Shown here: one piece after another, positions 1-40,413 of the stretch
How the letters are laid out: every line of letters starts with the position of its first letter
Position numbering within the stretch: the stretch's first letter is position 1
DNA from: Escherichia coli
GTDB taxonomy: Bacteria; Pseudomonadota; Gammaproteobacteria; Enterobacterales; Enterobacteriaceae
Direction: 5' to 3' (one strand)
Length of the DNA stretch: 64,000 nucleotides
NCBI RefSeq assembly: GCF_002854065.1
Contig: NZ_CP024151.1
Program-made: the position numbers and the translations under genes
The notes under the pieces: generated by a model
Told to the model about the DNA's origin: nothing
The model's input: the letters and a program-made list of their open reading frames with translations, nothing else
The model's database searches: none

Positions 1-549
1 CTTACCGATTGCTGCAGTGTAATAACCATGATTCTGAAGTAATTCAGACAGGAATGTTTCTTCCAGAGGGATACCATCCTGTGCATCAGAATTTGAATAT
101 ACACCGAAGCGAGCAGGAGCTCGCGCCGTCAGGATTGCGGCACGTGAAGGGCCAGAGACACCGTGTGCAACATAGCCGTTAGTGAATTTTACACCTTCGT
201 CCATCAGGGCCGCTAATGTTGGAGTGGATTTTTTTGCAGCTTCAATTGCTTTATCAATACCTATTTTGTATGTATCAACAACATTTCGGTTATCCATCGT
301 TTTAGGGTCAAATGAACTATCATCAAAAGGCAATTGTCCATACCCTAAATCATCCATTGTTAAAACAATGATATTTGGCTTACCTTTAGTGCTGTATTCC
401 GTCGGCGTGAAGTCCGCAAAGGCAACATTGGTTTTTGTTGCTTTGAGCTTAACATCATCTGCTGCATTTGCAGTACTCATCATCAGACCAGATGCTAATA
501 TAAGTGATATTGATGAGTTAAGCAGTTTTTTATTTAACTGATGTTCCAT
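1..549 (-). CDS. Sulfatase-family protein, N-terminal part (gene runs off the left window edge)
   Basis: Reverse-strand translation from ATG at 549: MEHQLNKKLLNSSISLILASGLMMSTANA (signal peptide) ... VAHGVSGPSRAAILTARAP, i.e. the S-x-P-S-R-x-x-x-L-T-x-R sulfatase signature (Ser-type). Not in the ORF track because it is truncated. Confidence 0.6.
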   Translation of the reverse strand, partial: MEHQLNKKLLNSSISLILASGLMMSTANAADDVKLKATKTNVAFADFTPTEYSTKGKPNIIVLTMDDLGYGQLPFDDSSFDPKTMDNRNVVDTYKIGIDKAIEAAKKSTPTLAALMDEGVKFTNGYVAHGVSGPSRAAILTARAPARFGVYSNSDAQDGIPLEETFLSELLQNHGYYTAAIGK

Positions 550-644
550 ATGGTATTCCTTCTGAGTTGCATCACGAACATTTATTAATAATAAAAGCCT
601 CTGATATAAATAAAAACTATGTAAATCGTTTAAATGGATACCTG

Positions 645-1781
645 TTAAAACTGATACATCATACCAACAGCAAGTATATTATCGGTTGCAACTCCAGCCT
701 TTTTGGTAAATTCGCTTTCATCAATAAGGTTAATTTTGTAATCAATAAGAAGTGACATGTTTTTGTTCAGAAAGTAGTTTGCGCCAACATCAATATACTC
801 AACAAGAGACTGATCGCCATAGTTTACTATTCCACCTTTAACATCCATCCCTTTGGACTGAACGTAAGCCAGTGAAGGACGCAGGCCGAAATCAAACATA
901 TACTGAGCCACAACTTCAATATTCCGTGCTTTATCTGCGATGCCTGCGCTACCAAATGGAGTCATATTTCGGGTTTCAGAGTAGTCAGCTGCCAGATACA
1001 GGTCATTATCATTATACTTGACCCCAACACCTGCAAACTCCGCATGTTTTCCCCCGGCAATCCAGCGAGGCGTAATAACTTCTTTTCCTTCTGAATCTTT
1101 CGATGTCATGAAACGTTTACGGCCTTCTTTTTCCTGCAGACTGGTTCTGTCGGCATTAGTGTAAGCGGCAACGATTCCAAAACCTTCATAGTCATAGCTT
1201 ACGGAGAAACCATATCCATCACCATTAGCTTCAAGTAAATTATCACGGTCATTTTTACCCTGATATTGAGCAGAAAAAGTAAGTCCATCAACAAGCCCGA
1301 AGAAATCTGTATTGCGCCAGGTCAGAACTCCGGTTGTTCTGCCGGTCATATAGTTATCAGAGTAAGTCCAGCTGTCACCACCAAAGTCCGGAAGTACGTC
1401 AGTCAGAGCCCCCACATCATAGGCAACACCATAGTTTCGCCCATAATCAAGTGAACCGAGTATATTGTGGCGAATACCTGCAAATGCCAGACGATTTTTA
1501 TCGTTGCGTACTTCACTTTCTGTCTTAAACCCCAGGAACTGGTATTCCCACTGACCAAAGCCAGTCAGGCTCTCATTAATTTGTGTTTCGCCTTTGAAAC
1601 CAAGACGTGCAAATGTTCTGTCGCCATCCATAGAACCATCAGAGATGTAATGACGGGCTTTAACGCGACCATAAAAATCCAGTTTATTACCGTCTTTATT
1701 ATAGATTTCTGCTGCCTGTGTTGCCTCACACAGCATTAATGCAGAAACGACAGAGCACACAACCACACTTAATTTTCGCAT
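645..1781 (-). CDS. General bacterial porin (OmpC/OmpF/PhoE family)
   Basis: Track ORF 645..1802, start taken at MRKLSVVVCSVVSALMLCEATQA signal peptide; 16-strand porin-like sequence with C-terminal ...AVGMMYQF, the typical terminal aromatic motif of enterobacterial porins. Confidence 0.85.
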   Translation of the reverse strand: MRKLSVVVCSVVSALMLCEATQAAEIYNKDGNKLDFYGRVKARHYISDGSMDGDRTFARLGFKGETQINESLTGFGQWEYQFLGFKTESEVRNDKNRLAFAGIRHNILGSLDYGRNYGVAYDVGALTDVLPDFGGDSWTYSDNYMTGRTTGVLTWRNTDFFGLVDGLTFSAQYQGKNDRDNLLEANGDGYGFSVSYDYEGFGIVAAYTNADRTSLQEKEGRKRFMTSKDSEGKEVITPRWIAGGKHAEFAGVGVKYNDNDLYLAADYSETRNMTPFGSAGIADKARNIEVVAQYMFDFGLRPSLAYVQSKGMDVKGGIVNYGDQSLVEYIDVGANYFLNKNMSLLIDYKINLIDESEFTKKAGVATDNILAVGMMYQF

Positions 1782-2334
1782 AAAAAAATCCCCTGTGCAC
1801 ATTTTTAGTATGGTTTTAAAAATTAAACTATGGCGAAAAAATTATCACCATGCAAATATGTAACAAAATATTTCTCGGTGATCTATGTTGTTGTTTTTAT
1901 TTGAGGTTGTATATTTTCTAGTGTATTTGACTTTTCTTTCTTAAGTGTTATTTCTCGACCTTTATCACAGAACCATCTCCCTGGATATCCCCATAACATT
2001 GCATGAAAAGCAAGTTTTACCAATCTTGATTTTCAGTGTTAAATAAGATTAATAACTGTAATTCTGCAAAAAAAAGAACACCATATGTAGTATGACTACG
2101 TATTCCACTCTGTTCGTTCACGGACTGGCATCGAAGTCTGAGGTGTACTGGCAATAGCGGATACAGTCATTTGTTCTTTTTTTAAGCATTCATCCGATGA
2201 TACTTTTCCTGAATGCTACCGGAGTGGTATTCCCCTGCCGTGATAGACTGGCCCCCTGAATCTCCAGACAACCAATATCACTTAAATAAGTGATAGTCTT
2301 AATACTAGTTTTTAGACTAGTCATTGGAGAGCAG

Positions 2335-2700
2335 ATGATTGATGTCTTAGGACCGGAGAAACGCAGACGGCGTACTACACAGGAAAAGATCGCTATTGTT
2401 CAGCAGAGTTTTGAACCGGGAATGACGGTCTCCCTTGTAGCCCGGCAACACGGTGTGGCAGCCAGCCAGCTATTTCTCTGGCGCAAGCAATACCAGGAGG
2501 GAAGTCTTACTGCTGTGGCCGCAGGAGAACAGGTCGTTCCTGCCTCTGAACTTGCTGCTGCCATGAAGCAGATTAAAGAACTCCAGCGCCTGCTCGGCAA
2601 AAAAACGATGGAAAATGAACTCCTTAAAGAAGCCGTTGAATATGGGCGTGCAAAAAAGTGGATAGCGCACGCGCCCTTATTGCCCGGGGATGGGGAGTAA
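2335..2700 (+). CDS. insC: IS2 transposase OrfA (InsC)
   Basis: Translation [56 protein letters not shown]... matches InsC of IS2; HTH N-terminal domain. Confidence 0.85.
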
Positions 2701-3563
2701 GCTTAGTCAGCCGTTGTCTCCGGGTGTCGCGTGCGCAGTTGCACGTCATTCTCAGACGAACCGATGACTGGAAAGATGGTCGCCGCAGCCGTCACTCAGA
2801 TGATATGGATGTACTTCTCCGTATACACCATGTTATCGGAGAGCTGCCCACGTATGGTTATCGTCGGGTATGGGCGCTGCTTCGCAGACAGGCCGAACTT
2901 GATGGTATGCCTGCGATCAATGCCAAACGTGTTTACCGGATCATGTGCCAGAATGCGCTGTTGCTTGAGCGAAAAACCGCTGTACCGCCATCGAAGCGGG
3001 CACATACTGGCAAAGTGGCCGTGAAAGAAAGCAATCAACGATGGTGCTCTGACGGGTTCGAGTTCCGCTGTGATAACGGAGAAAAACTGCGAGTCACGTT
3101 CGCGCTGGACTGCTGTGACCGTGAGGCACTGTACTGGGCGGTCACTACGGGCGGCTTCGACAGTGAAACAGTACAGGACGTCATGCTGGGAGCGGTTGAA
3201 CGCCGCTTCGGCAACGAGCTTCCGGCGTCTCCAGTAGAGTGGCTGACGGATAATGGTTCATGCTACCGGGCTAATGAAACACGGCAGTTTGCCCGGATGT
3301 TGGGGCTTGAACCGAAGAACACGGCGGTGCGGAGTCCGGAGAGTAACGGCATAGCAGAGAGCTTCGTGAAAACGATAAAGCGTGACTACATCAGTGTCAT
3401 GCCTAAACCAGACGGGTTAACGGCAGCAAAGAACCTTGCAGAGGCGTTCGAGCATTATAACGAATGGCATCCGCATAGTGCACTGGGTTATCGCTCGCCA
3501 CGGGAATATCTACGGCAGCAGGCCAGTAATGGGTTAAGTGATAACAGGTGTCTGGAAATATAG
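2658..3563 (+). CDS. insD: IS2 transposase OrfB (InsD, DDE domain; expressed by -1 frameshift fusion with OrfA)
   Basis: 301-aa ORF overlapping the insC 3' end in the -1 frame; DDE integrase-like sequence (..WCSDGFEF.., ..[11 protein letters not shown].., ..[12 protein letters not shown]..). Confidence 0.85.
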
Positions 3564-3974
3564 GGGCAAATCCAGTATCCGGATGTGCTGCCAGCCTTCT
3601 CAGTTAACCGATGTTTTCCGGGCTTTTTGCCATACTGAGGACTGATAACGTATTCCTGGTCGTAAAACCCGTCAATATGCGCCGGGGCATCGACAAAACT
3701 GACACAGTACGTCCGGAAAGAACTTAACGCTGCATGGCACGACAATGCTGCCTTTGTCTTTACCAACAAGGCTCGTTCCCGCATAAAAGTTCTACGCCGG
3801 GATAAACATGGCGTATGGCTGCGTCAGGCCTTCACTACTTCACACCGGAAGTCTTCCAGCCTGACACGAATATACCGTCCGGGCTCTTTCGCAGGTGCAA
3901 ACAGTTTTTCACATTCGGCGAATGTCATTTCTGAATCCTGGTAACGCAACCACTGAACCGGCATATTACCGGGT

Positions 3975-4580
3975 TTGATTATTGTCGCAGTTATTTTATA
4001 TCGTTTCCCCATATCGCCTCTCATCCTGACAACAAAATTACCGGCTGAGCCAGGGGGCCCTCACCCCCCTATAAGGGGTCCGCTTGGAAACATATCGAAG
4101 AAAACGGCCGGCGGGAGGAATACGGCGCGCTACCTGGGTCGTTATCTGAAGAAGCCGCCGATAGCAGCCTCCCGGCTGGCACATTACAACGGAGGGGCGA
4201 GCCTGAGCCTCCGTTACCTGGACCACAAAATGGGAGAAACGGCGACGGAAACGCTGACACAGCGAGAGCTGGTCGCGAGGCTGAAACAGCACATCCCGGA
4301 GAAGTTTTTTAAGATGGTGAGGTACTTCGGGTTCCTTGCCAACCGGGTGTGTGGAGAGAAGCTGCCGCAGGTGTACCGTGCTCTGGGGATGGATAAACCG
4401 GAAGCAGTGGCGAAAGTGTGCTATGCACAAATGATGAAACAGTTCCTGAGTCGTGATCCGTTCGAATGCGTGCTGTGTGGCAACCGGATGGTATACCGCC
4501 GGTCCCTTGCGGGGCTGAATGTATCAGGGCTGAAGAAAAACGCGCGGGATATCAGTCTGCTGAGGTATATGCTGGCCTGA
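3975..4580 (+). pseudogene. C-terminal fragment of an IS91-family (HUH Y2) transposase
   Basis: ORF translation ...RYLGRYLKKPPIAASRLAHYNGG...MVRYFGFLANR...CVLCGNRM resembles the C-terminal zinc-binding region of IS91/IS801-type transposases; no N-terminal catalytic half upstream. Family assignment is from memory. Confidence 0.4.
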
Positions 4581-4846
4581 CGCAGGCTAAGTGTGCCCGG
4601 GAATTGGTGCAGGAATAAAAAACAGCCTGTTGCGGTATAAGAATCGACCATGCAGAGAGATAAAACACCGGAGTGGTGGGAAAAGCAGAAGAGCTCACGT
4701 GGCATAAGGCGTGGACAGCGGTATCGTCTGGTTTTTCAATTTCCTATACGTCAAGGATATTTAATGGAATATCAAACATTTGGCCTGATAACAATGCTCA
4801 AGGATTAATACCTGCAGGCTATGTTAAAGTTGTCCCCACACACAAT

Positions 4847-5122
4847 CTACCTGTTTTCTCGTGTGTGCCACAGGCGCAATACATAAATAGTCTGGCCAGT
4901 AAGTTCGTAACGGATTTCGTACTCGCCAGCATAAATCCGTCTGACCTCCCTGGGTTCAAACTGAAACAACTGTTCTCCCATACGTGGATGAGTTAACAGA
5001 ATGACCGGTGCCTGTGTCAGGGACTGCACCGTTCTGGCTGCAGCTGGTTTACTGGCCAGCGCCAGAAAATCATATAACCGCGCCAAATCAGAAAGCGCCT
5101 TACTGGTCCACTTCAGTTCCAT
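4847..5122 (-). CDS. RelE/ParE-superfamily type II toxin
   Basis: 91 aa; ...REVRRIYAGEYEIRYELTGQTIYVLRLWHTRE is the characteristic RelE/ParE C-terminal pattern; start overlaps the stop of the upstream antitoxin. Confidence 0.8.
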   Translation of the reverse strand: MELKWTSKALSDLARLYDFLALASKPAAARTVQSLTQAPVILLTHPRMGEQLFQFEPREVRRIYAGEYEIRYELTGQTIYVLRLWHTRENR

Positions 5123-5406
5123 CAGCGAGGCACCGGTAACGGATTGTCAGTACCGAGGCTGTCCGCCCAGGCCTGTACAGCCTGATGGTCGATAACCTGT
5201 CCGGATGTCACATCGTCCAGGGCTTCCAGCGTCAGGCGATTACGCTCCTCCTCCTGGGCAAGCCATGCAGAAAGCGCCTGTTTGATAATCCAGCCCCGGG
5301 ACCGTTCCAGTCTGGCGGCCATCTGGTCGACTTTATCAGCCATAGGTAATGGCACATGCGCAGTAATTACTTTTGTTACTTGTGCGGTATTGTTTTTCAT
5401 TTGCAT
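5122..5406 (-). CDS. Ribbon-helix-helix (CopG/ParD-like) antitoxin
   Basis: 94 aa, directly upstream of and overlapping the toxin; RHH-like N-terminal region (..RLERSRGWIIKQALSAWL..). Start codon uncertain (several in-frame Met). Confidence 0.7.
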   Translation of the reverse strand: MQMKNNTAQVTKVITAHVPLPMADKVDQMAARLERSRGWIIKQALSAWLAQEEERNRLTLEALDDVTSGQVIDHQAVQAWADSLGTDNPLPVPR

Positions 5407-7250: not shown

Positions 7251-7779
7251 ATCTGGTCTGAACCAGATGGTTCCTCCATCAAAAGCGATGAGATGAAGAT
7301 CATTATCAAGAGTTTTGAGGGCTCTCCAAACACGAGTGTATGAACCTCCACTACAAACTGAAAGCTCTTTAACAGATAAGTTAACTTTGTTCGTATCAGG
7401 GATGTAGTGTGCGCACATTACTTGTACGAGGGAAACATAAAAACTAACCATCGACGCGCTGATTTTATTTTTACGTTTGCCATGCGCTATTGCAAGAAAA
7501 CCTCTGATGAAGATCAGATGCTTGAAGGAGTCAAAATGAGCCCTTTTCTGGAGAAGGCAGCAAAACGGGTGAGGATACTTGCTGGAATCAATGTGAAGAT
7601 CTGATTCAATCCCACCCGCTATTACTGAATGTGTTTCATGATTAGCCACACCATCCTGCACTTACAATGCACAGAAGGAGTGAGCACAGAAAGAAGTCTT
7701 GAACTTTTCCGGGCATATAACTATACTCCCCGCATAGCTGAATTGTTGGCTATGCGGTTTTATGGGGCCCCGGTAATCT

Positions 7780-7890
7780 TTCTAGTCGCCAAACTTGAAG
7801 AAGATTATCGGGGTTTTCGCTTTTCTGGCTCCTGTAAATCCACATCAGAACCAGTTCCCTGCCACCTTACGGCGTGGCCAGCCACAAAAT
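7780..7890 (+). ncRNA. copA: Putative CopA/CopT antisense copy-number control region
   Basis: Located in the repA leader just downstream of copB, opposite strand to repA; contains CGCCAA and GC-rich hairpin-capable sequence I associate with R1/R100 CopA/CopT. Exact ends and strand not verifiable without alignment. Confidence 0.35.
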
Positions 7891-8467: not shown

Positions 8468-8671
8468 CTTCCGTGCTTCGTAGGCCAGAGTTACCTGCAC
8501 CACTGTATTTCCTCTGTGAATATTCAGCTCACATAACCGTTCCCTGAATATCAGTGAAAAACACAACACCATGGCGCACACGGCGAGCAACCCGATAAGG
8601 GCATATTTCGTCATAAACTTTGACCTCTCTGCAAAGAAGAGGCTACAATCAGTAGTGTTAAGGTACTTCAT
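8468..8671 (-). CDS. srnB: Hok/Gef-family type I toxin homologue (SrnB-like)
   Basis: Translation MKYLNTTDCSLFFAERSKFMTKYALIGLLAVCAMVLCFSLIFRERLCELNIHRGNTVVQVTLAYEARK matches the SrnB sequence as I remember it; single TM helix plus conserved C-E-L motif. In this sequence the frame reads on to 8321 with no stop after ...EARK. Confidence 0.7.
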
Positions 8672-9619
8672 GCAGACCTCACGAGTTAATGGATTAACGA
8701 GTGGGGTCTTCGCATTTCTGGTACCTGCGTCTTGCCTGAACCAGAAAGGCTCAGACACCCGCCGCGATAATACCACATTCCCTGTTGCTGGCTATTACCC
8801 CCATTTGCCTGTTTTTGTTACAAAAACGCCGGGAGCGGGGGAAAACTTACTTTTTCCCGTTTCCGGGGGGGACAACTGAGCATTGCGAACGCGTCAGCTA
8901 CGATGTTCCGGTGATTGCTGATCAGCCCCTGTTGTATTCATAAACTAATTAACATTCATTCCGTCTGGTGCATAAATCTGCCCGTGAACATCTGCAGACA
9001 ATACCGACCATAAAAAAATAAATAATCCCAGTAGAATATATTTCCTCATATTATTATCCATAACAAATAAATGGCACCTGTACACCTGTATTTCAGGCAA
9101 TCCTGAATATTGCAGCGCACATTGAATAAGACGTTATTTCGTGACATTAATCACAAAATATAAAATCGCGACTTAATACGGAAAAAACTCTGTGCTACTC
9201 AGAACTGACTGGTCATACTGCCCGACCGGATATTAAAAAAGCAAATCTCATAAACTCCTTTCAGCCTTCTGACTCCTGGAGTAATGAAGGCTGCTTTTTC
9301 GTTACACCCTTCCCCGGCAGCGCCGGTAGCAGTGTTCAGCCCTTTTTCGGGCAAACTGCTGCCAGTCTGTCCGGGGCGCAACACAGGCAGCCCGTCGCCA
9401 TCCTTCTGCCGCTTCCATCCAGCGTCCACTGACCTCCAGAATAACGGCCCGGCTTCCGGCACGCTGCCAGCGCCAGACCTGACCGTTCCGTGAACTGTTT
9501 CTGAATCCATTCATCTTTATCACTCCTCTTTAACCCGTCAGTATTATGGTGTTAAATAATCTACTGAATTGGCTTCCTTTCGGGTACGGAAGTTTATTTC
9601 CTTTTAAGCCTTATTTCCC

Positions 9620-9650
9620 TGCCTCCTCTCTCTGATGGAGGCTTTTTTTA
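9620..9650 (+). terminator. Hairpin plus T-run (possible bidirectional terminator at the finO 3' end)
   Basis: GCCTCCTCTCTCTGATGGAGGC stem-loop followed by TTTTTTT on the plus strand, directly abutting the finO stop. Confidence 0.35.
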
Positions 9651-11028: not shown

Positions 11029-14000
11029 TCAGTCTCCGCCCAGGGTTTTCTCTTTCTGCAGGGCACGAACCATATCCCGCTCCATCTGCTGCAGTCGCTC
11101 CTGCAGCAGATTTTCCCGGGCAACATCCCGGACCGCTTCCCGCACCCGTTGTGATTCACGCAGCACACTCTCCGGCAGCGCGGCTTCCCGTTCAGATATG
11201 GCAGACCGGTCACGCTCCTGCCCGGCAATCTCCCTGACAGCCTGCTCTGTTTTGCCATCCGGCAGGTCAGGTTTGTTCTCTGCCATTTTACGGACAATTT
11301 CATCCGCACGGCGTTCCGTTTCACGGCGGATGGCCTCTTCAGCTTGCCGCTGTGCCAGTACCTCTGCCGTGACCGGTTCGCCATTTCCGGCTCCCGGCTG
11401 AACGCTGTTGTCCGGGATATCCCCCCACACGCGACCACCGGTGATGGTACCGGGATTCCACGGACGACCTTCACCGGCGATTCTTACCACCACACCGCTG
11501 TCAGGATTATCACGGGCAATCCGGACACCATCCTGCATATTATCAGCCAGCAGGCTCTCTCCGTTACGGCTGCCCTGCAGGGCCACGAACTGCGCATCCC
11601 CGCTGCCTTTCACCCGGCCTTCACCACTGAAGCCCCGCAGCCCGTTTCCGTCATCCGTGGTCAGCGGATTCAGCCAGATACCGGCGGACTTGCCGTTACG
11701 GTCAAAAGCCGGCAGTGCCACATACGGCTGCGGATATTTGCGCCCGGGTGCAATAAACCGTGCAGGATTGTCTCCCCCGGCAAGTCCCGCCTGACGGAGA
11801 ACGGCACGGCCGGCCGCCACGTCCCGCAGCTCCCGCGCCGTACTGAACAGCCGCTCTGCATTCATGACCTCCCGGTCCGATTTCGGCTCAAGCACATCGT
11901 GGGCAGTTCCTTTCTGTACGGCATTGTTAATGGCATCCGTCCAGCCCTGACGGTTATCGGTATACACCTGCACATGCTGCTTCATACGCGACAGGGCCAC
12001 GTAGGCTGACTCAAAGCCGGCCATCTGTTTCCGGCTGCCTTCCGTACCTTCAAGCGCGATGGCAAAGGTTTCACTTGCCCCCTGCGCACCGTGGGCGGTG
12101 ATGGCATAGGCCAGGTCAATATGTTGCTCTGCCCGCTCCTGACCGGGGCGAATCACCCGGGTCTGCTGTCCGTCCGACAGCGTGACACTGTCACCGGAAA
12201 CCGCTGTCACCGTCCAGACGCTGTTGGCCACATAACCGCGCTCCCGGTCACTCTTCGTGAAGCGCATCCGGTCACCGGTTCCCACCCGGATGGTGTCCGG
12301 GGTGTACAGTGTGACGCCTTCAGCCACCGCCTCCCGGGGCGAAATCAGCCGCGTGTTACCTTCAGCATCCTGCAGGGTTATCAGCCCGTCATCCCTGCTG
12401 ATACCGGCAATCCGGTGATACACATTATCCACCAGGGCAAGTGCGTCCCGATGTGTCTCCCAGGTGGAGAGACGACGCAGCTCCCCGTCGCGTATATTCG
12501 CTGTGTTCAGGACAGGCACCATGACCTGCTCTTTTCCCAGCTCACCGGCCTTTTCCCGTGCATCATGAATCATGCTGTTCAGCACGCGCCGGTCCTCATT
12601 CAGGTGCGTGACAATCAGCGTCTGCTCCCGTGCTTCCGGTGTTCTGCCGGTATAGTCGCGGACAATGGCTTCATACAGTGTCATGGGGACATCCGGGAAA
12701 GCCTCGCCTTTCAGCATCGCCTTCTGCTGCGCTTCTGCCAGTTTCGCTTCCTGGCTGTGACTGAACTCCATCACGGAGTGCTCCGGTGCCCATGCGCCCT
12801 CCAGACGTGGCACCTGAGACGGTTTCACACTCTCAAGCCCGGATAGTGCCCTTTCCACATCCCGGTTAATCAGGTTGTATACCGCCTCCCGCAGTTCCGG
12901 CGTCTGACGCACAATCTCCTTCATGATGGCCACATCGGCAGCACTGCGCGTCTGCTGGAGACGGAAAGGCTGACCGGGCGCGATGGCCTGCAGCTGGTCC
13001 GTGTCACCACTGGCCACGGCACGACCGCCACCGGCCGCAATCAGGGCGTATGCCCGTGCCATGTCGGTATTGCCCACCATTGAGCTCTCATCGAGCAGGA
13101 ACAGCGTGTTGCTGAAATCCGGCGTTTCTCCGCTGCGCTGCTGCAGCTGCGTGTCATGCAGAAAAGACGCCAATGTCTGCGCATCCACGCCGGCGCTGCG
13201 CATCTCCCCGACCGCACGGTGTGTGGGACCCAGCCCAACGACACGGGGACGCTCACTCTCCGGCAGCATGTTCACGGCTGACATCACCGCCCGGAACTGT
13301 GTGGTCTTACCCACACCGGCATAGCCCTGCACCACCGTGAAGCGGTCGGACGTTTCCAGTATCATGCGGGTGGCGGCGCGCTGTCCTGATGTCAGTTTCT
13401 CCATGAGTTCGCCAGGTACTCTCTCCATCAGCGGCGTGACCGCCTCCTTACCTTCGAGAATATGGCGAAGAATGCTCTTTTCTGCCTCATACGACGCACG
13501 GGAAACCAGCAGGCCTGTGCCATAGTCTTTTGCCACATCCACATACAGTAAATCACCCCGTTTTATCTGCGCATCGATTTCCCCTCCCAGTTCAGTAAAA
13601 CTGGTTCCTTCTGCAGCAAACGACTTCGCCTCTGTCAGCAGGTCCACCATGCTGAAGGCCAGGTTTTTACTTTCCAGCACAGGAAGGGCCAGATGAATGG
13701 CCTGCTGTGCCGGCGTGTGAAGCCCGGCTTTCTGCAGACTGATAGCGGTTTCCAGCAATGTCTCACCGGCACGCGCCTTTATCTGCTCAGAAACCACCGT
13801 AAAGGAGGGATGGCGGGCAAGTTTTTCCGCAGTACGGGTTTCATCCAGTGAGGAATACAGCCGGACATCACGACCGCTGCGGGCCAGACCGTTCAGGGTG
13901 GCGTTGTCCATTGCCATCTGTGTGACGGAGGCAAAAACCTTCGCACTGTCGCTGACGGAATGCCCGGGCGTTTCCACCCAGCCGCTCTCCAGCTTCAGTG

Positions 14001-16299
14001 CCGTGAACGGTGAATCAGCCACAGGCAGGGAGGCCGGTTCAGCCCGTCCCGGCACAACAACCGTCATCGCGTCCTCGCTGACGGATGCCACCTGCAGGAG
14101 GTCACCGCCGGAGACGCGGAGTCCGGGAATTTTCCCGGTCACCCTCAGACGCTCGCCGTCTGCCACCGGCATTTTTTCCGGCCGGAACAGCGACCAGCTG
14201 CTGTCCAGGGAGGAAATACGCACCACCTGCGTTTCACCCTGCGCATCCCGCAGGGTCAGGCTGTGACTCTGCGCCGTCACCCGGTCGATAACATAGCGGT
14301 CATGACTGCGTGTCTCCGGGTTCCACTGCTCCATCACCATCCCCGGACGGTACATATCCCGCAGATAACGGCTCCGGCTGTCCAGCCAGACCGGTGACAG
14401 TGCCGTCATGGTTACCTCCGGGTGTCCGAGCACGCCCTGTGTTTTCAGCTCACTGCGAATGGCCTGTGTCAGTATGGCCTGTTCCCGTACCCCGCTGACC
14501 TGTGCCACGCTCTCTTCTCCGGCTTTCACGCTGGCCGCAAAATCTCCTGCCAGCCGGGCATAGCGGACATTACGGTCCGGTTCACTGATGATGGTGGCCG
14601 GCCGCTGTTCTCCCCCCTGCCAGCGATATGTGTTCACCCCGGCATCTTTCATGGCCATCAGTGCACTGCCTGTACCGGTTCGCTGCCCGCTGTCGGTTAT
14701 CAGGACCTGTACGTTATGACGTGCAGCACCGTCCAGCAGGGTTAACGTCTCTTTCAGGGAGAGTTTTTCGCCCTGGTCAACGATAACAGTATTGCCCGGC
14801 GTGAAGGCCATGCCCTCCTGCAGCTGACGACGTCCGGTTATCAGCTCACCGGACAGCCGTTCATCCTGCTTCAGGTTCATCTGCGAGCGACGGTCAGCGG
14901 CGATAATCTGCACCTCCCGCCCCTGCTCCCGGGCCATCATGACCAGCTCCGCCACCCGCTCACGCTGCCCGGCTGCACCGCCCTGCCCGGACACAATAGC
15001 CAGCGACGGGCGATCCTGTGCCAGAACACTGACCGCATCGCTGTAACCGGCCGTCCGGGGGACACTTTTCTCCGGATGTACGGTCACCCGGTTCTGTTTC
15101 ATGATGTCACGACTGAGTGCCCGGACTGACAGCTCATCGAGCACATGAATCCCGGACGTGAACAGCCCCTTCTCACGATCGAGGGGGATAAGCTGCTCAC
15201 GGCTGATGGCCTCATCGATACCGGCGCGTGCCCGTTCAATCACACCATTTTCCGGCGGCAGTATGCCGACCGTTCTGGCCAGCACGTCCGTGTACGTAAA
15301 CTGCACTTTGCGTTCACTTAATCCGGCAATCGCCTGTGTCACCGCCTGCTGCACATCCGGCCCGTCCGGTGAAGCAGGCCCGGGCGCCTGCGTGCGGGTC
15401 TCCGCCCGTTGATCCGCCGCGTCACGATACGCCCGGATGTCGAACCCGGTTTCCCTCAGCGTCTGCATCCATTCAGCCATTCTGACTTCAGGATCGACGT
15501 GCTGTTTGGATTTTCGCGTATCCAGTGCCGCCACATCCCGGGATTTCAGCGAGGCATCTTCCCCGACGGCCTCCCGGATAGTCTGTGAGCGTCCGGAAAA
15601 GGCCTCCACCGGTACGCCCGGCATCTCCCACATACCGTGCTTACCCACCACTTCGGTTTCATAGCCCAGCGCCTCAACCTGCTCTTTCAGTTTTTCCCGG
15701 TAGAGCCTGCCAAAGGCAATCTGATTAGCGTACACATTCTCAATGAACCCCGTTTTCCCCACTTTGTCACTGCTCAGTGTCTTCCACTCACCGTTATGCT
15801 GCGTAACATTAGCCACCACCGCATGCGTGTGTAACTGTGGTTCCTGATCGCGACTGGTGTCGTGGTTAAACAGTGCCATCACCAGATTACCGGTCAGTAC
15901 CGTTTCTGACTGTCCGTCCGTCATCACCCGTGTGGAGGCCAGCGCCTCCACCTGACGAACAGCAAAGTCCACGGCCTGGTTATGTGCATCAATCAGGCGC
16001 TTATCGCCACCTAACATGGCCATCATGGAGACACTTTTGGGGGCGGAGAAGGTCAGGTCGTAGCCGGGACGATGCTTATTACTGCCATCCTGCATGCGGC
16101 TTAGATCCGCTCCGTCCGGCAGCCTTCCCTCCAGAAGACGGGTAAAAACATCCTTATCGACACTGCCCTGCAGTCCCAGCTGTTCAGCCCCCCTGCCGGC
16201 CCAGCGTTCTCCCATGCTGCCCAGTACATAGTAATTATCCTTGTCGGTATAATAGTTACCGGCACTTCCGGCCGATCTGACCTGCGCGATACTCATCAT
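11029..16299 (-). CDS. traI: TraI relaxase/helicase (MOBF)
   Basis: 1756 aa; N-terminal relaxase region ([24 protein letters not shown]...) and Walker A GYAGVGKT in the helicase domain; size and position classic for F-like TraI. Confidence 0.95.
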   Translation of the reverse strand: MMSIAQVRSAGSAGNYYTDKDNYYVLGSMGERWAGRGAEQLGLQGSVDKDVFTRLLEGRLPDGADLSRMQDGSNKHRPGYDLTFSAPKSVSMMAMLGGDKRLIDAHNQAVDFAVRQVEALASTRVMTDGQSETVLTGNLVMALFNHDTSRDQEPQLHTHAVVANVTQHNGEWKTLSSDKVGKTGFIENVYANQIAFGRLYREKLKEQVEALGYETEVVGKHGMWEMPGVPVEAFSGRSQTIREAVGEDASLKSRDVAALDTRKSKQHVDPEVRMAEWMQTLRETGFDIRAYRDAADQRAETRTQAPGPASPDGPDVQQAVTQAIAGLSERKVQFTYTDVLARTVGILPPENGVIERARAGIDEAISREQLIPLDREKGLFTSGIHVLDELSVRALSRDIMKQNRVTVHPEKSVPRTAGYSDAVSVLAQDRPSLAIVSGQGGAAGQRERVAELVMMAREQGREVQIIAADRRSQMNLKQDERLSGELITGRRQLQEGMAFTPGNTVIVDQGEKLSLKETLTLLDGAARHNVQVLITDSGQRTGTGSALMAMKDAGVNTYRWQGGEQRPATIISEPDRNVRYARLAGDFAASVKAGEESVAQVSGVREQAILTQAIRSELKTQGVLGHPEVTMTALSPVWLDSRSRYLRDMYRPGMVMEQWNPETRSHDRYVIDRVTAQSHSLTLRDAQGETQVVRISSLDSSWSLFRPEKMPVADGERLRVTGKIPGLRVSGGDLLQVASVSEDAMTVVVPGRAEPASLPVADSPFTALKLESGWVETPGHSVSDSAKVFASVTQMAMDNATLNGLARSGRDVRLYSSLDETRTAEKLARHPSFTVVSEQIKARAGETLLETAISLQKAGLHTPAQQAIHLALPVLESKNLAFSMVDLLTEAKSFAAEGTSFTELGGEIDAQIKRGDLLYVDVAKDYGTGLLVSRASYEAEKSILRHILEGKEAVTPLMERVPGELMEKLTSGQRAATRMILETSDRFTVVQGYAGVGKTTQFRAVMSAVNMLPESERPRVVGLGPTHRAVGEMRSAGVDAQTLASFLHDTQLQQRSGETPDFSNTLFLLDESSMVGNTDMARAYALIAAGGGRAVASGDTDQLQAIAPGQPFRLQQTRSAADVAIMKEIVRQTPELREAVYNLINRDVERALSGLESVKPSQVPRLEGAWAPEHSVMEFSHSQEAKLAEAQQKAMLKGEAFPDVPMTLYEAIVRDYTGRTPEAREQTLIVTHLNEDRRVLNSMIHDAREKAGELGKEQVMVPVLNTANIRDGELRRLSTWETHRDALALVDNVYHRIAGISRDDGLITLQDAEGNTRLISPREAVAEGVTLYTPDTIRVGTGDRMRFTKSDRERGYVANSVWTVTAVSGDSVTLSDGQQTRVIRPGQERAEQHIDLAYAITAHGAQGASETFAIALEGTEGSRKQMAGFESAYVALSRMKQHVQVYTDNRQGWTDAINNAVQKGTAHDVLEPKSDREVMNAERLFSTARELRDVAAGRAVLRQAGLAGGDNPARFIAPGRKYPQPYVALPAFDRNGKSAGIWLNPLTTDDGNGLRGFSGEGRVKGSGDAQFVALQGSRNGESLLADNMQDGVRIARDNPDSGVVVRIAGEGRPWNPGTITGGRVWGDIPDNSVQPGAGNGEPVTAEVLAQRQAEEAIRRETERRADEIVRKMAENKPDLPDGKTEQAVREIAGQERDRSAISEREAALPESVLRESQRVREAVRDVARENLLQERLQQMERDMVRALQKEKTLGGD

Positions 16300-18461
16300 C
16301 AGAAATCATCTCCCGGCTCAACATCCTCCCCACGCTCCCGGTGCACATTAATGTTCACCTCTTCACGACGCTGCATCTGCTGCTGGATGTCCGGATGATT
16401 TTCCTGTTGCCATGCCTCATAAGCGGCCATATCCACCACTTCACCGGATTCACTGATCCCGGGTGGCAGTTGCTGTTCCATCTCTTCTTCCGGTTTCATT
16501 TTCAGCTCCTGCTCGATCCCCCCTGCCGGAACATTCACACCTGAATCTGACTTCTTATCGTTTATGGCAGGAGACACCGGCTGTTGCGGCTGTTGCGGCT
16601 GTTCAGCCTGAGTCACGTCTTCTCCGGAAACAACTTCCGGCACATCCGGTTCGAAGAGGCTGGCCATCTGACGACCTTCTGCTTCCCTTGCGGCAAGTAC
16701 GGCACTCAGACGGTTCTCCATTTCCGGGTTGATGTCACGCGGAATAAACTCAGGGGCAACCTTCGGACGTGCCTGATATTTCAGTGAGAGTTTTACTGCC
16801 GGATACGGTCCGGGCAGGGTGACATAACAAGTCAGATCCGGCAGAGACTGAATGTCGGAATAACTGACCAGCGTCTGGCGCTCCATATCCTTACCGGTCG
16901 ATACCCCGTCACGTACCGGATCAGCACCGTAGGAATACTGCTCGCTGGCTTTCAGGTGCTCTTTCTCACCAATCTCACCGGCAGCGAACTCTGCAATCTT
17001 ATGGCTGGGAGAACGGAAAAAGGCACGAGTGTTCATGACGTCAAACAGCGTGGCAGCCGCTTTCTCACCGTAGATATCTTCCAGCTGGGCATAGGACTGG
17101 ATACCAAACACATAACAGCCACCGAACTTACGGGCTTCCGGCAGGATCTCCACCAGGTCCGGCAGTTTGTGTAACGTGGGTAGCTCATCACAGAAAAACC
17201 ACACACGACGGTTACGGTTTTCTCCCATTGCCAGCAGACCACGAATGGCAATGGACAGCCACATGGAGATCACCGGCTTCAGGGAGGCATGGGTGTCGGC
17301 ATTCGACGAGATAAACAGCCAGCCGTTTTTCTGATCTTCCCGGACACCCCGCATCCAGTCACGGATGGTAAAAGACTCACCGTTATGCTCAATCCCCTGC
17401 AGGTAACGGATGGCTTTCACGTAGTTGGTCAGCACAGCACGGATGGAAATCGCCGTTTTCTCAATTTTCTCTTCCACCAGGTTGGCCGCCGGTGAATTAC
17501 GCAGGAAGGTACGCAGTTTTTCGATTTTGATGGAAAGCAGTGTGTCCACCAGTTTGCTGTAGCTGCGGTTGGGGTCATTACGCATCAGGTACGCCGCTTC
17601 CGCAAAAATGGTACGTCCTGAACCCTGCCAGAACGGGTCCTCTTTTGTGCCCATCGGGATCAGAGTATTTGCGGTATTATCAAAATCCGGCTGTGTCAGG
17701 CACTCCTTCCACAAATCCCAGGCGGCACAACGGGCATCCAGCGGATTCAGGATTTTATCGATGGAGGGATCATAGTAACTTTTAACAAATTCCCCTGAAC
17801 GGTCATAAATCACCACCATATCTCCACGCTGACGGGCGTAGTTGGCCAGACGACGGATAACTTCCGACTTACCGGCCCCGACCGTGCCGTGCAGACAGAA
17901 GTTCTGGATTTCGGAATCCCGGATAATCGGCAGGTCGCCAATCCGTATATCGGAGTCCTTGCCGTCTTTTTTCAGCATCCGGGCAACGTCTTTCGGGTTC
18001 TCCGTCAGCTGACGACCACCTGTGACTTCATTTTCGCTCTGTTGTTTACCCTGACGCCCCAGAATCCAGGAGACAACAAAGAAGGTAATCAGGCAAATAA
18101 CCAGTGCCACAACTGTAGCCAGAACGAATGCGGACCATAGCTGCTCTCCGCACCAGATCATATATTTATCATGCAGTACCTGAGCAGCGTTCATCCGGAA
18201 GGTTTTGCCGTAATACTGGATCTCATAGACCGGCTGGGACTTGATTAAATCCCGCATGCCTTCCAGCGTGGTACACCACCAGTAAATACAGCCGTTCACA
18301 AACGTCTGCCAGCTTATTTTTACCCATAAAACCAGACCAACGAGTATCCAGAAAAAAATAAACAGGCAGTAAAGCATGATATTGGCGATCTGGCTGAACA
18401 TGCGGATACGCATGGACGCAATCTGACCGCCCTGGGTCATATCCTTTGCGTTAAAACTCAT
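16299..18461 (-). CDS. traD: TraD type IV coupling protein
   Basis: 720 aa; N-terminal TM segments, Walker [12 protein letters not shown]; C-terminal Q/P-rich repeat (QPQQPQQP) and acidic tail typical of F-like TraD. Confidence 0.95.
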
Positions 18462-19967: not shown

Positions 19968-22789
19968 AATGGCCCCTTCAATCGTTCTTTCTTATCATCC
20001 ACCATCTGTTTTAACGCATCTTCAGACGGTGTTGGCATTAATTTCTGTCGTTTATTTTCTTCATTATATCTGTTGTTTTGTTGAATTTCTTCCTGTTTGT
20101 GATTATTTTTTAACTCTGAATATTGTCTGTCTACAATATTTTCTTCGCCATGAATACTATTCTGAGTATCTCCGATATTCCCTTTATATTCTGTGACCAT
20201 ATTATCAACCTGATGTTTTACATCATTACGGATATTACTGTCCTGCGTTCTTTGATCAATAATGGCCTGATGCCCCTGATGGTCAGCAATAATATCCTGG
20301 CTGCCACCACCCGAAGGTACGCTCTCCATTCCTTTACCAATATCCCCACGGGATTCACGCCAGGCATTATCAACACCAGGCTGCACCTGTTCCTGAACAA
20401 AAGACCATGCCATCGCCCGACGGCGTTCTGCAATCTCCGGTGAACTGGTGTTTGTCAGAATAGCTTCGGCATCCTGCGGTGCGTGTTTCATCACATACTG
20501 TGCAAACTGTTGCGACAAATCTTCGCTCATCTGCCCACTCATGCTTTCAGTACGGGATGCCATTTCAGCATATTCATGGCTGCGGGTCATATTCGTCGTG
20601 TACTGGTCGTAACTCTGTTTCGCTGAGTTCAGGGCTGCAGACAACTGGTCCACGCGGGAATCGGCATTATTGTCAGTATGGCTGCCGGATTCACTGACTT
20701 TGCGACTGGTAAAGTAATCGCTGGCCTCTTTAAAGTCCTTACTGGCTTTAGCATCGATATCATGGCGAGCATCATGGGTAGCCCTGCTGCCACTACTTGC
20801 TGAATGTGAGTCATCATCCGTTGCATCCAGGCTCCCCTTAAATCCACCTCTGATGCCTACCCCACCACCAACACCAAGAATTTTAGGTTTAACCCCCCAT
20901 TCAGCATGAGCATCAGCATACATTCCACCAGATAGCCTGGTACTTGTTGATGCCAGTTCCTGAGTCGCCTGCTCATTACTGATATTATGCGCCTTCGCAT
21001 AGCTTTCCACTGCACTGCGCATACGGCTGGCCATCATGGAGTCCTGAGCACTCATCGTGCTGTCAGCACCACCGGTGACAGAATCACTGCTCCCCCGGTT
21101 AGAACCAAACTGACTGAGCGTGTTCCAGGCACTGGCAATACTGCTGCTGAACCCATGCAGGGCACTTTCTGCTCTGTTCGATGCTTCCCGGGCCATTTCC
21201 TGTTGTGCCGCCGCAATCTGACGCGTTGCATTGATGCCGACCGGTAACCGGGACATCGCTCCGCTTGCATCCATCACCATATTACCGTCACGGGTCTGTG
21301 TGGCGGTTGCGCCACTGCCGGTCTGGTACATCATCTGACCAAACGACGTGGTGCTGTTGGTGCTCCAGCTGAAGCCGTTAACATTCTCCGTCTGCATGTT
21401 GCCGTAGGAGTAATTACCGTCAACCACACTGCCTGCTGCACTGGCGGTCGGGCTGATAGCAGAGGAAGCGAAATGGCTGTACACACTGGAAAATCCTGCC
21501 CCGAGCCCCCTGACCATCATCCAGGATAATGGCGGGATCATCATGGAAAGATACCCGGCAGTGGAAGCCAGATCGGAGTATTTCAGCTGTATCTGTGAAA
21601 TTTCCGAGAGCACCACCGGTGCACCATTCTGCTTTGCATAAAATGTCATGGCGCTGTTCAGAATGGCGTACAACATTGGCCATGACTGCAACCACATCAG
21701 GGCAAACACATAGCCTTTCAGGACGGACAGCGTCAGTTTGTTGAAGACAGCCGCCAGTACCAGGAGCGGGAAAATACCGATGGCGATCCCCGTCAGGATG
21801 GTCTGCGTCATGGGCAGTGTCCGCATCGCCACATGACCGATGGAGACATGTGCCAGACGTTGCTTCTCCATCGATGATGTGGTGGCCAGATTCACCAGGC
21901 TGGCCGAATCACCATTACGTGCGGCATAACTGGTGATCCCCTCCTTCAGCGCATTGATGGTGACATTCTGGCGGATGATCTGGCTGGCTGATTTACTTGA
22001 GCCATAGAAGTAACTGTAACTGTCGCCAATCAGCGTACTGAACAACAGGTTCGGATCAGGGCGTCCACCAAATAGCTGCTGGGCATAATAATGCCATGTT
22101 TTTCCGCCACTCTGTGTGTCCAGATTCAGCTTGTCTTTCAGCGAAACCGACGCGTCCTTACAGGTCACGAAATTATTATTGCTGTCATAAACGCCCCGCA
22201 GCGGACTGGGGCGGGAAAAAATCAGCGTGTAAGGATCAGCGGAGGCCATCAGTTCCTCCAGCGTGTATTTGTGGTTCAGGTAAATATCCCCCATCACGCA
22301 GTTCTGCACATAATCCTGGAAAAGATTGGCGATTTCCGGATTACGGGACAAAAAGTCGGTGCTTTTTGATACCAGTTCTGCGCCAAACAGCATCCCCGTT
22401 TTGCTGTAGGTGACACTGTCCGGTTGCGTGAAGATCATCTCGTAACTGGCCACCATTGCATGCCCGATACGGGTCGTCAGTGAAAGTGGCATCGCCAGTC
22501 CGACCGGCACATTATCCACCCGGTGAACTTTGACCAGGTCACTGTTATCAATAATCTGCACCGATGTGCGGACATTAACCAGCAGGCTGATAAGCACAAA
22601 CACGGCCACCCAGCCCAGCAAATCCATCACGTTGTGCCGCTGTACCCACATTACGGCCACCGCGAGAACAGACAATGTGAGCGCAATTTTTTCAATGGAA
22701 TCCCACGTCCGGGTCCCCATAAAGGCGGCAATGGCATTCAGGTTATTCCGCAACCACTCACCACCGGCAATCACATAAACTTCATTCAC
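19964..22789 (-). CDS. traG: TraG (mating-pair stabilisation / entry-exclusion partner; VirB6-like N-terminal domain)
   Basis: 941 aa; multi-TM N-terminus and large periplasmic C-terminal domain; position after traH. Confidence 0.92.
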   Translation of the reverse strand: MNEVYVIAGGEWLRNNLNAIAAFMGTRTWDSIEKIALTLSVLAVAVMWVQRHNVMDLLGWVAVFVLISLLVNVRTSVQIIDNSDLVKVHRVDNVPVGLAMPLSLTTRIGHAMVASYEMIFTQPDSVTYSKTGMLFGAELVSKSTDFLSRNPEIANLFQDYVQNCVMGDIYLNHKYTLEELMASADPYTLIFSRPSPLRGVYDSNNNFVTCKDASVSLKDKLNLDTQSGGKTWHYYAQQLFGGRPDPNLLFSTLIGDSYSYFYGSSKSASQIIRQNVTINALKEGITSYAARNGDSASLVNLATTSSMEKQRLAHVSIGHVAMRTLPMTQTILTGIAIGIFPLLVLAAVFNKLTLSVLKGYVFALMWLQSWPMLYAILNSAMTFYAKQNGAPVVLSEISQIQLKYSDLASTAGYLSMMIPPLSWMMVRGLGAGFSSVYSHFASSAISPTASAAGSVVDGNYSYGNMQTENVNGFSWSTNSTTSFGQMMYQTGSGATATQTRDGNMVMDASGAMSRLPVGINATRQIAAAQQEMAREASNRAESALHGFSSSIASAWNTLSQFGSNRGSSDSVTGGADSTMSAQDSMMASRMRSAVESYAKAHNISNEQATQELASTSTRLSGGMYADAHAEWGVKPKILGVGGGVGIRGGFKGSLDATDDDSHSASSGSRATHDARHDIDAKASKDFKEASDYFTSRKVSESGSHTDNNADSRVDQLSAALNSAKQSYDQYTTNMTRSHEYAEMASRTESMSGQMSEDLSQQFAQYVMKHAPQDAEAILTNTSSPEIAERRRAMAWSFVQEQVQPGVDNAWRESRGDIGKGMESVPSGGGSQDIIADHQGHQAIIDQRTQDSNIRNDVKHQVDNMVTEYKGNIGDTQNSIHGEENIVDRQYSELKNNHKQEEIQQNNRYNEENKRQKLMPTPSEDALKQMVDDKKERLKGPL

Positions 22790-39536: not shown

Positions 39537-40223
39537 TTACTTAACGCTATAAAATTCACGAATTATATTTAATAGCAAATCTATTTTCCCTTTATAGATA
39601 CATGACACTCTGAATAAATCAAAGTGTTCAAAAAATTCTTTTATTTTCCGTTTAACTGGTTTAATTCGATCCTCAGATGCTCTGTCTGTAATACCCAATT
39701 CTCTGGCAATTGTTGCATGACCAACACCCAGCATATAAAAAGAGAAAACAAGCAATGTCCCGGGGGAAAGATCATTCCATATCGTTAATTTATCAGAAGT
39801 ATTTGTATTACTTCCACTCTGACTTAACGCAAAAAATGGATAATCAGGAAACGGATTAATTTGCCATAAAACAACAGATTCGTCATTATAAAAAGAAACA
39901 TTCTCCATCCTTATCTGATAGATTTCGCCATGAAAATTAAAACGACGACAAAATGCAGAGCCATGTCCAAGAGCCTGGCATTCCAATTCAAGTGATGAAA
40001 GAAAAATTTCAACCTGCAGACGTATATAACTCTCTCCGGATAAGGGTTTATCTTCTCTGGAAAAGAGTTCAATAAAAGCCCCATTGGCATAAAGGATTTT
40101 CCGGTTTTTGTTACGGACACAAACCGGAACGGGAGAATTTCTGTAGATATTCTGAACGTTAAGGATGTACTTATTTACAGATTGACTGTTAAGTGGCCTT
40201 TCTCTACGATCCAGCGCACACAT
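39537..40223 (-). CDS. traJ: TraJ transfer operon activator
   Basis: 228 aa from [14 protein letters not shown]...; C-terminal HTH; start at 40223 preceded by GGAGG and embedded in the FinP-complementary leader. Confidence 0.85.
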
Positions 40224-40296: not shown

Positions 40297-40413
40297 TTTC
40301 AATTTTTAACGTGGCATTAACCACGTAATTAATATACTAATTATCTGACGTATTGTCATCTTTTTGAATCATAAAAATTCTTATATTTGAACCAACTCAA
40401 ACTTCATTTTCAT

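Follow-up and report, generated by a model that had tools for sequence, protein, structure and literature searches.

[quoted passage not shown] The surrounding replicon is closest to the ColV and ColBM plasmids of the IncFIB-FIC type (e.g. pAPEC-O1-ColBM), which share its backbone module of an IS91-family element, a ParE/RHH pair and a RepFII/FIC replicon. A comparable behaviour of an insertion sequence has been described for IS150, a member of the IS3 family, in the Lenski long-term experiment: 14 of 83 IS events were insertions that lacked a target-site duplication and had lost between 14 bp and 49 kb of adjoining DNA, a loss explained by two steps in which the element first inserted and the DNA beside it was then deleted (PMC11708052).

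Here, we focus on positions 1..4700 of a window, the whole stretch of 64,000 nucleotides that was analysed, from the Escherichia coli contig NZ_CP024151.1. By gene order and nucleotide identity, this plasmid segment is most likely a fragment of an LAA module II or LPA-type island, and not the island itself. The order hypothetical gene, sulfatase, porin, IS66 remnant and DUF1187 gene is the same at 98.9–99.7% nucleotide identity, in chromosomes assigned to LAA/LPA by gene content and by PMC6920203 rather than by a reference LAA sequence. Unlike the islands, the plasmid has only about 4.4 kb of this DNA, without iha, btuB, the AraC regulator and the island SPATE gene (lesP/espI); an IS2 stands in place of 351 bp, and the fragment lies on a conjugative IncF plasmid. 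The segment shares the edge of the ColV locus with the ColV/ColBM plasmids, but only 38 bp of that edge is left and the IS91-family element is truncated. As with IS150, a single IS copy without target duplication marks a site where DNA was lost; here, however, IS2 is the element involved and what is seen is a historical event.

The sulfatase and porin genes

An earlier reading of the sequence, hereafter the original prediction, had described a porin, a sulfatase, an IS2 and an IS91 fragment in this region, and all four are present at or near the places it gave them. The cargo genes and the DNA beside them are as follows.

1..549, minus strand: 5′ part (183 codons) of a sulfatase gene (Pfam Sulfatase; RefSeq WP_000401034.1)
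645..1781, minus strand: general bacterial porin gene, 378 aa (Porin_1, E = 7e-124; PhoE structure 1pho, E = 1e-110)
1782..2243, no strand: low-GC stretch 5′ of the porin gene, island DNA (GC 0.35), which stops exactly at the left IS2 joint

The window holds 549 of the 1698 nucleotides of the sulfatase gene, and the remainder of this 565-aa gene lies upstream of it. The Pfam Sulfatase match and the translation, which has an export signal (...STANA/ADD) and the Ser-type motif SGPSR (pattern S-X-P-X-R), identify the product as a predicted periplasmic Ser-type formylglycine sulfatase of the S1 family. Solved structures of that family match it with E values down to 1e-56, the best being S1_19 and carrageenan sulfatases. 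Both cargo proteins belong to families with well-known members in E. coli, namely Porin_1 (OmpC, PhoE and OmpF) and Sulfatase (the Ser- or Cys-type S1 enzymes AslA, YdeN and YidJ), and share their signal peptides; compared with the K-12 sulfatases, the plasmid enzyme is nearer to the S1_19/carrageenan type among solved structures.

The porin covers positions 1–337 of 337 of the Porin_1 profile, has an N-terminal signal peptide and finds its best solved relatives in the PhoE and OmpC structures (E ~1e-110). Its NCBIfam scores all fall under the curated cut-offs (OmpC 441 versus 484; PhoE 419.5 versus 599; OmpF 410.6 versus 583), which rules out orthology to any of the three; by these profiles, the protein is a member of the OmpC/PhoE/OmpF family and an ortholog of none of them. 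Judged from family membership, the porin most likely serves as an entry pore in the outer membrane, and the putative sulfatase most likely acts in the periplasm on sulfated host glycans and depends on an anaerobic maturase of the host. An Rfam scan of 1..4700 returned no RNA family, and promoter and terminator scans stayed at or under chance.

The island of origin

The GC content across the cargo is 0.33–0.45, and this low value is counted in favour of foreign origin. The original prediction was right to regard the cargo as chromosome-derived DNA on a plasmid, the sulfatase-porin pair occupying 107 chromosomal and 12 plasmid places in 5,426 complete E. coli genomes, but not to regard the two genes as typical chromosomal loci; by composition and distribution they are low-GC accessory genes of a pathogenicity island, present in about 2% of genomes. 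Around 100 E. coli chromosomes have both flanks of the IS2 within an island of the order iha-btuB-sulfatase-porin-IS66 remnant-DUF1187-AraC-SPATE. Its synteny is the same in the three chromosomes examined and extends beyond both ends of the plasmid fragment, and the DUF1187 gene likewise follows the porin there.

The direction of transfer might be questioned, since pathogenicity islands are mosaic in structure, often with DNA from plasmids, and SPATE genes are found close to the module on plasmid and chromosome alike. Transfer from such a plasmid to the chromosomal islands is nevertheless very unlikely. The chromosomal copies are both more numerous and more diverse (107 places, 95–100% identity), their synteny is conserved past both ends of the fragment, and they keep the 351 bp with continuous IS66 homology; the listed plasmid copies are 99.9–100% identical to that of the window and truncated at both ends. 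No chromosome in the collection is 100% identical to the plasmid copy, the best reaching 99.6–99.7%, so the actual donor is not among the sampled genomes.

IS2 and the 351-bp deletion

Downstream of the low-GC stretch lie an insertion sequence and the remnant of another.

2244..3574, plus strand: intact IS2 isoform (IS3 family), 1331 bp (IRL at 2244, IRR at 3574; transposase CDS 2335..3563)
3575..3821, plus strand: remnant of an IS66-family element (RefSeq tnpB pseudogene 3632..3821)

The IS2 ends read TAGACTGG.../...GGCAAATCCA; its length and termini (TAGACTGGCC... at the IRL, ...GGCAAATCCA at the IRR) are those of IS2, and the canonical IS2 elsewhere in the replicon has identical ends, the overall identity of the two copies being 95.4%. 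The two overlapping ORFs match HTH_Tnp_1 (OrfA) and rve/rve_3 (OrfB) in Pfam, the A6G frameshift motif lies at ~2651–2658, and RefSeq annotates an intact, joined CDS with a programmed frameshift (−1, as in IS2). Copies of this isoform at 100% identity are found in the chromosomes of host strains. That the element is intact and its flanks (CGTGA and GTATC) do not form a 5-bp target-site duplication had been noted before and holds; the copy does not have the structure of a simple insertion.

The chromosomal islands provide the empty site. Window positions 1..2243 correspond to 12001..14243 of chromosome L002 (99.55% identity) and 3575..4052 to 14595..15072 (99.8%), while L002 14244..14594, a stretch of 351 bp, is missing from the plasmid. 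In about 100 E. coli chromosomes the two flanks are collinear: their order and orientation are unchanged, and only these 351 bp separate them. The arrangement free of IS2 occurs in 100 genomes and that with IS2 and the deletion in 10 records, 10 of 10 being plasmids. In the chromosomes, homology to IS66 tnpA-tnpB continues without a break past the right end of the deletion, which marks the chromosomal state as the ancestral one; the tnpA-proximal part of the remnant has gone with the deletion. Relative to this empty site, the loss of 351 bp explains the absence of a duplication, which reflects the history of the copy and not a failure to belong to its family: on the collinearity, the missing target duplication is the mark of an IS-associated deletion. 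A precursor, with IS2 and an intact duplication at either breakpoint, was not found among the 5,426 E. coli genomes.

The original prediction had IS2 mediating a rearrangement, and this stands as far as a local deletion is concerned. It does not stand for capture: both flanks come from one collinear island, which places IS2 inside the cargo and not at a joint between cargo and backbone, and their spacing in the chromosomes makes the rearrangement a small deletion within the cargo. The lack of a target-site duplication and the IS elements around the cargo could suggest that IS2 is the recombination joint by which chromosomal DNA was fused to the plasmid; given the collinearity, and given that backbone homology begins only at 4053–4091, such a fusion is highly improbable.

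Mismatched flanks may also arise by homologous recombination, as an inversion or deletion, with another IS2 of the replicon. A further IS2 was not found inside the window, and a search of the whole replicon for a partner returned only one other copy. The window matches the IncF plasmid pDETEC81 (NZ_CP116170.1) at 100%, and there this second, canonical IS2 is inverted and lies ~11.7 kb upstream of the window's copy. A related plasmid, L001, contains 120 bp from the IRL end of an IS2. The original prediction proposed to look for a partner copy, but the second IS2 is not a recombination partner: it shares only 95.4% identity with the window's copy and is bordered on both sides by a perfect CTGGC duplication, and its matching ends validate the boundaries 2244..3574. 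The flank of the L001 fragment, TGTTG, matches neither CGTGA nor GTATC, and the DNA on either side of the window's IS2 lines up with the island. Recombination between IS2 copies across the replicon was rejected on these grounds, and its probability is slight.

IS2 occurs at up to 41 places per genome, and repeats of this kind commonly break assemblies; a collapse or mis-join at such copies could have produced chimeric junctions, as the original prediction allowed. The chance of this is negligible. At least 10 complete plasmids, each assembled independently, have these joints and match the window at 100% over 1..4700 or 1900..3900. They differ in laboratory, host and country of origin, with China and the UK among the countries. 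The left IS2 joint is also kept in derivatives truncated by other elements.

The junction with the plasmid backbone

The right end of the cargo and the start of the backbone comprise the following features.

3824..4012, minus strand: intact gene for a DUF1187 small protein (Pfam DUF1187, E = 2e-17), the last island gene kept
4052..4053, no strand: right end of the island-derived cargo and joint with the backbone; chromosome homology ends at 4052
4053..4090, no strand: 38-bp scrap from the edge of the colicin V locus of ColV plasmids, identical to what lies there ~90 bp upstream of cvi
4091..4757, plus strand: IS91-family 3′ fragment, with roughly the C-terminal third of the transposase (pseudogene 4092..4580) and the downstream IS end
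4847..5122, minus strand: ParE-family toxin (Pfam ParE_toxin), first backbone module together with its antitoxin
5122..5406, minus strand: RHH antitoxin (Pfam RHH_1)

The region is an IS-rich mosaic, as first described, and its breakpoints can be placed at 2243/2244, 3574/3575 and 4052/4053. The ORFs after IS2, described as fragmentary, include one true remnant (IS66 tnpB) and one intact gene (DUF1187). It is not IS2 that joins the cargo to the backbone; the joint lies at 4052/4053, next to the 38-bp ColV scrap and the truncated IS91-family element. Neither an IS end nor useful microhomology is present at this joint. The 38-bp segment occurs at 739 plasmid places and was ruled out as a transposon inverted repeat, since in ColV plasmids it is unique sequence located upstream of cvi; in the examined part of the replicon there are no cva or cvi genes.

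The IS91 C-terminal fragment is real, although its start at about 3975 in the original prediction is not: compared with the complete element in L003, nucleotide homology (94.5% identity) begins at 4090/4091 and runs beyond the stop codon to ~4757. It covers positions 96–180 of 183 of Y2_Tnp and 228–355 of 356 of NCBIfam transpos_IS91. A complete element, with a Y2/HUH transposase and both ends, is not present, and by its profile coverage the fragment is a remnant that cannot encode a transposase. The backbone of plasmids without IS91 resumes at ~4752–4758, and the RepFII/FIC replicon follows the ParE/RHH module, with CopA RNA at 7734..7822.

IS91-family elements co-mobilise DNA on their terIS side. 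The cargo lies on that upstream side of the transposase gene, and one-ended rolling-circle transposition with read-through past terIS could in principle have carried it. This route is very improbable, for the element is truncated (positions 228–355 of 356), the ColV scrap separates it from the cargo, and complete copies adjoin the same toxin–antitoxin (TA) module in other F plasmids that lack the cargo. In a cargo-free relative, CP057835.1, the order is cvi-[IS421]-38 bp-IS91 fragment-TA-RepFII, and the presence there of the same 38-bp/IS91 joint indicates that the truncation predates the cargo. In cargo-free plasmids, 3575..4052 was not found as backbone DNA. The end of IS421 was ruled out as the source of the 4052/4053 joint; the window keeps two more bases on the ColV side than the copy flanked by IS421.

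Distribution and the left edge

The sulfatase-porin pair is found in about a dozen of 72,556 PLSDB plasmids. The left edge of the cargo fragment, outside the window, is an IS3 end. In some plasmids an IS1 is located at this edge as a simple insertion with a 9-bp duplication; it was ruled out as the boundary of capture, being a later insertion that is missing from NZ_CP182310.1. No literature on the plasmids pDETEC81 and p886Rt_hybrid was found.

A proposed history of the segment

The best explanation of the region as a whole, with a probability of roughly 85%, is that an island fragment was captured once by a plasmid and that IS2 later landed inside it with the loss of 351 bp. Collinearity, breakpoints, deletion and recurrence in many plasmids are read directly from the genomes; from them we infer an order of events and a molecular route for the deletion. 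The source would be ~4.4 kb (IS2 excluded) of a horizontally acquired E. coli pathogenicity island, from between btuB and the AraC/SPATE genes, containing the hypothetical gene, sulfatase, porin, IS66 remnant and DUF1187 gene; the window would begin inside this fragment. Before capture, the 38-bp ColV relic would already have been fused to the 5′-truncated IS91-family element beside the ParE/RHH module and the RepFII replicon. Capture probably took place a single time, in a ColV-derived IncFIB/FIC plasmid lineage. Afterwards, the IS2 isoform would have inserted into the captured DNA, 462 bp upstream of the porin start codon, and an IS-associated deletion would then have removed 351 bp, consisting of spacer and part of the IS66 tnpA remnant. 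The loss may have come about as an adjacent deletion, or two IS2 copies inserted close together may have recombined; both routes leave one IS2 with unrelated flanks.

Significance

The region is an ordinary patchwork of an E. coli F-type plasmid, with little import beyond plasmid bookkeeping. The corrected joint between cargo and backbone is useful for typing this plasmid lineage. The region also shows, at base resolution, how a 351-bp deletion can leave an IS2 without a target duplication. In E. coli of humans and pigs, conjugative IncF plasmids, some with resistance genes, carry with them part of a STEC-type pathogenicity island. It is doubtful that the sulfatase-porin pair functions as a module, mobile by conjugation, through which mucin or other sulfated glycans of the host are used; if it does, it would bring a fitness gain to gut-colonising E. 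coli of pigs and humans, and would account for the persistence of an otherwise island-bound pair, intact, on a spreading IncF lineage.

An IS2-associated deletion within the cargo

The features originally predicted in 1..4700 are all present, and the segment is laid out as follows.

1..549, minus strand: sulfatase, first 183 residues of 565 aa (Pfam Sulfatase)
645..1781, minus strand: porin, 378 aa (Porin_1 full length, E=7e-124)
2244..3574: IS2, 1331 bp, with canonical ends, HTH OrfA, DDE OrfB and an A6G frameshift site
4053..4090: 38-bp ColV-edge sequence (GGGGGCCCTCACCCCCCTATAAGGGGTCCGCTTGGAAA), found at 739 plasmid places in complete E. coli genomes
4090/4091 to ~4757: 3′ third of an IS91-family element, 94.5% identical to a complete copy

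The 5 bp on either side of IS2 (CGTGA versus GTATC) do not form a direct repeat, as had been noticed. Window 1..2243 matches positions 12001..14243 of L002, an extract of E. coli chromosome NZ_CP075640.1, at 99.55% identity, while 3575..4052 matches L002 14595..15072 at 99.8% in the same order and orientation. At this site the chromosome reads ...CCTGCCGTGA|GGGAGGG...(351 bp)...CCCGGTG|GTATCCGG..., and in the plasmid these 351 bp are swapped exactly for IS2. Because both flanks are collinear in the chromosome, IS2 lies inside the cargo and is not the joint between cargo and backbone that it had been taken to be. A contiguous IS66-family tnpA-tnpB remnant (L002 14457..14841) spans the right breakpoint uninterrupted, which marks the chromosomal arrangement as the ancestral one and the plasmid as having lost DNA. 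In a set of 5,426 complete E. coli genomes, the intact, IS2-free arrangement occurs in 100 genomes and IS2 plus deletion in 10 records, all 10 of them plasmids.

The missing duplication therefore reflects an IS-associated deletion of 351 bp, and IS2 is a later insertion-plus-deletion within the cargo. The original prediction that IS2 mediated a rearrangement and not a simple insertion holds to this extent, but not as a cargo-capture event, since the DNA on both sides is island DNA. Of 83 IS events in three LTEE populations, 14 were insertions that lack a duplication and adjoin a deletion, ranging from 14 bp to 49 kb; all 14 involved IS150, an IS3-family element (PMC11708052). IS2 may have inserted first, followed by deletion of the adjacent 351 bp; alternatively, two IS2 copies could have inserted 351 bp apart and then recombined, with the same outcome. 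A precursor would be an IS2 that still has its duplication at one or other breakpoint, giving two possible joints, CGTGA-IS2-CGTGAGGGAGGG and GGTGGTATC-IS2-GTATCCGG; neither was found in the 5,426 complete genomes.

The joints are no assembly artefact: at least 10 complete plasmids, which differ in laboratory, host and country of origin, have them in identical form, and the left IS2 joint is conserved in derivatives where IS2 or the IS91 fragment was later interrupted by IS100, TnAs1 or a Tn1721-like end.

A partner IS2 elsewhere in the replicon had been proposed as a check. The whole window holds no further IS2. The window matches the IncF plasmid pDETEC81 (NZ_CP116170.1, 90,243 bp) at 100% identity, starting at record position 83523 and wrapping over the record origin, and the plasmid's only other copy lies outside the window.

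pDETEC81 record 72860..74190 (L012, a pDETEC81 stretch, 15861..17191): second IS2, canonical, inverted orientation

This copy has a perfect 5-bp duplication, CTGGC, marking a simple insertion, and is thereby ruled out as a recombination partner; a frameshifted ompP gene adjoins it. It is 95.4% identical to the window copy, so two IS2 isoforms coexist in one replicon. Copies 100% identical to the window isoform are present in chromosomes of strains hosting such plasmids. The related, near-identical plasmid p886Rt_hybrid (L001) carries a 120-bp fragment of the IRL end of IS2 with an unrelated flank.

Boundaries of the cargo

Island homology ends at 4052, 40 bp upstream of the DUF1187 start codon, and inspection of the 4052/4053 joint revealed neither an IS end nor informative microhomology. 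In ColV plasmids, the 38-bp sequence that follows lies ~90 bp upstream of cvi, the colicin V immunity gene; there, upstream of the cvi promoter region with its Fur box, it marks the edge of the locus. As an orphan relic here, it suggests a ColV plasmid as the ancestor of this plasmid lineage, with the colicin operon since lost.

The IS91-family fragment, previously placed at ~3975..4580, is real, but its homology begins at 4090/4091 and reaches ~4757. Rolling-circle transposition by such an element could in principle have mobilised the cargo. Against this, the cargo-free relative CP057835.1 has the order cvi, IS421 insertion, the same 38 bp, the same IS91 fragment, toxin-antitoxin and RepFII, so that the fusion of the 38 bp to the IS91 fragment is older than the cargo; moreover, a complete IS91-family element occupies the corresponding position in other F plasmids, e.g. 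pAPEC-O1-ColBM. In three related plasmids (e.g. NZ_CP046260.1), the IS91 remnant is interrupted at window 4140..4145 by a 38-bp inverted repeat resembling that of Tn1721, with a ~20-kb resistance region (sul2, strAB, tetA, IS26) between the cargo and the ParE/RepFII backbone; the flanking matches at the cut overlap by ~5-6 bp, consistent with a transposon target duplication.

The left joint lies outside the window. In NZ_CP182310.1, a cargo plasmid without IS1 at this edge, island homology begins directly after the right end of IS3. The IS1 at the left edge in pDETEC81 and p886Rt_hybrid has a 9-bp duplication and is a later simple insertion, which rules it out as the capture boundary.

Origin and predicted function of the sulfatase-porin pair

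The order hypothetical gene, sulfatase, porin, IS66 remnant, DUF1187, AraC regulator and SPATE autotransporter is shared by three chromosomes, one of which has iha and btuB directly upstream of the island segment. The segment is provisionally assigned to module II of the LAA pathogenicity island, a context in which btuB, a GalNAc-sulfatase and a putative porin have been described downstream of iha (PMC6920203). Chromosomes have the pair at 107 places, with 95-100% identity, and plasmids at 12, the latter 99.9-100% identical to the window among the matches listed; GC across the pair is 0.33-0.45. These counts, identities and GC values identify an accessory island module, and not the typical chromosomal loci originally supposed. 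The truncated plasmid copy is derived, and this points to a single transfer from island to plasmid.

A few chromosomes, accounting for ~7 of these 107 places, have the pair but match less than 80% of the intact segment that extends from upstream of the porin to DUF1187. Upstream of the sulfatase, at a distance of a few kb, related cargo plasmids encode a 1358-aa S6-family (SPATE) autotransporter (L001 2489..6565); the 3′ end of this gene shares ~84% identity with the SPATE gene that chromosomal islands have downstream of the module (L002 17568..21660). On the upstream side of the sulfatase, pDETEC81 has a different autotransporter gene.

The sulfatase signal peptide ends ...STANA|ADD, and the active-site motif S-G-P-S-R makes it a Ser-type formylglycine sulfatase; its nearest solved relatives are S1_19/carrageenan-type sulfatases. 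The porin has PhoE and OmpC as its best solved relatives and scores under the NCBIfam cut-offs for OmpC, PhoE and OmpF alike, and so is a family member orthologous to none of the three. The pair most likely supplies a dedicated pore in the outer membrane and, in the periplasm, a Ser-type sulfatase that would require a host anaerobic sulfatase-maturing enzyme such as AslB or YdeM, plausibly giving joint access to sulfated host glycans. The IRL end of IS2 faces the porin gene from 462 bp upstream of its start codon. No outward promoter is known at this end, so an effect on porin expression would not be expected.

The plasmid backbone

The IS91-family fragment is followed by a ParE/RHH toxin-antitoxin and then the RepFII/FIC replicon. 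Downstream of the cargo, the F-type backbone is complete for both replication and transfer, as confirmed by the standard IncF RNA set: CopA, two sok copies, FinP with the traJ 5′ UTR, and antisense RNAs to traI, traG and pHK01-type genes.

7734..7822, 8602..8760, 9222..9405, 13374..13450, 21985..22070, 40217..40326, 44323..44499, 51722..51824: IncF regulatory RNAs

In p886Rt_hybrid, a Tn3-family transposon with blaTEM-1 lies between the RepFII replicon and finO (L001 20471..25240); it is absent from the matching site in the window (~8900..9650), and the window plasmid thus represents the uninterrupted state there.

The region is a routine, IS-shaped IncF-plasmid mosaic bearing part of a known pathogenicity island.
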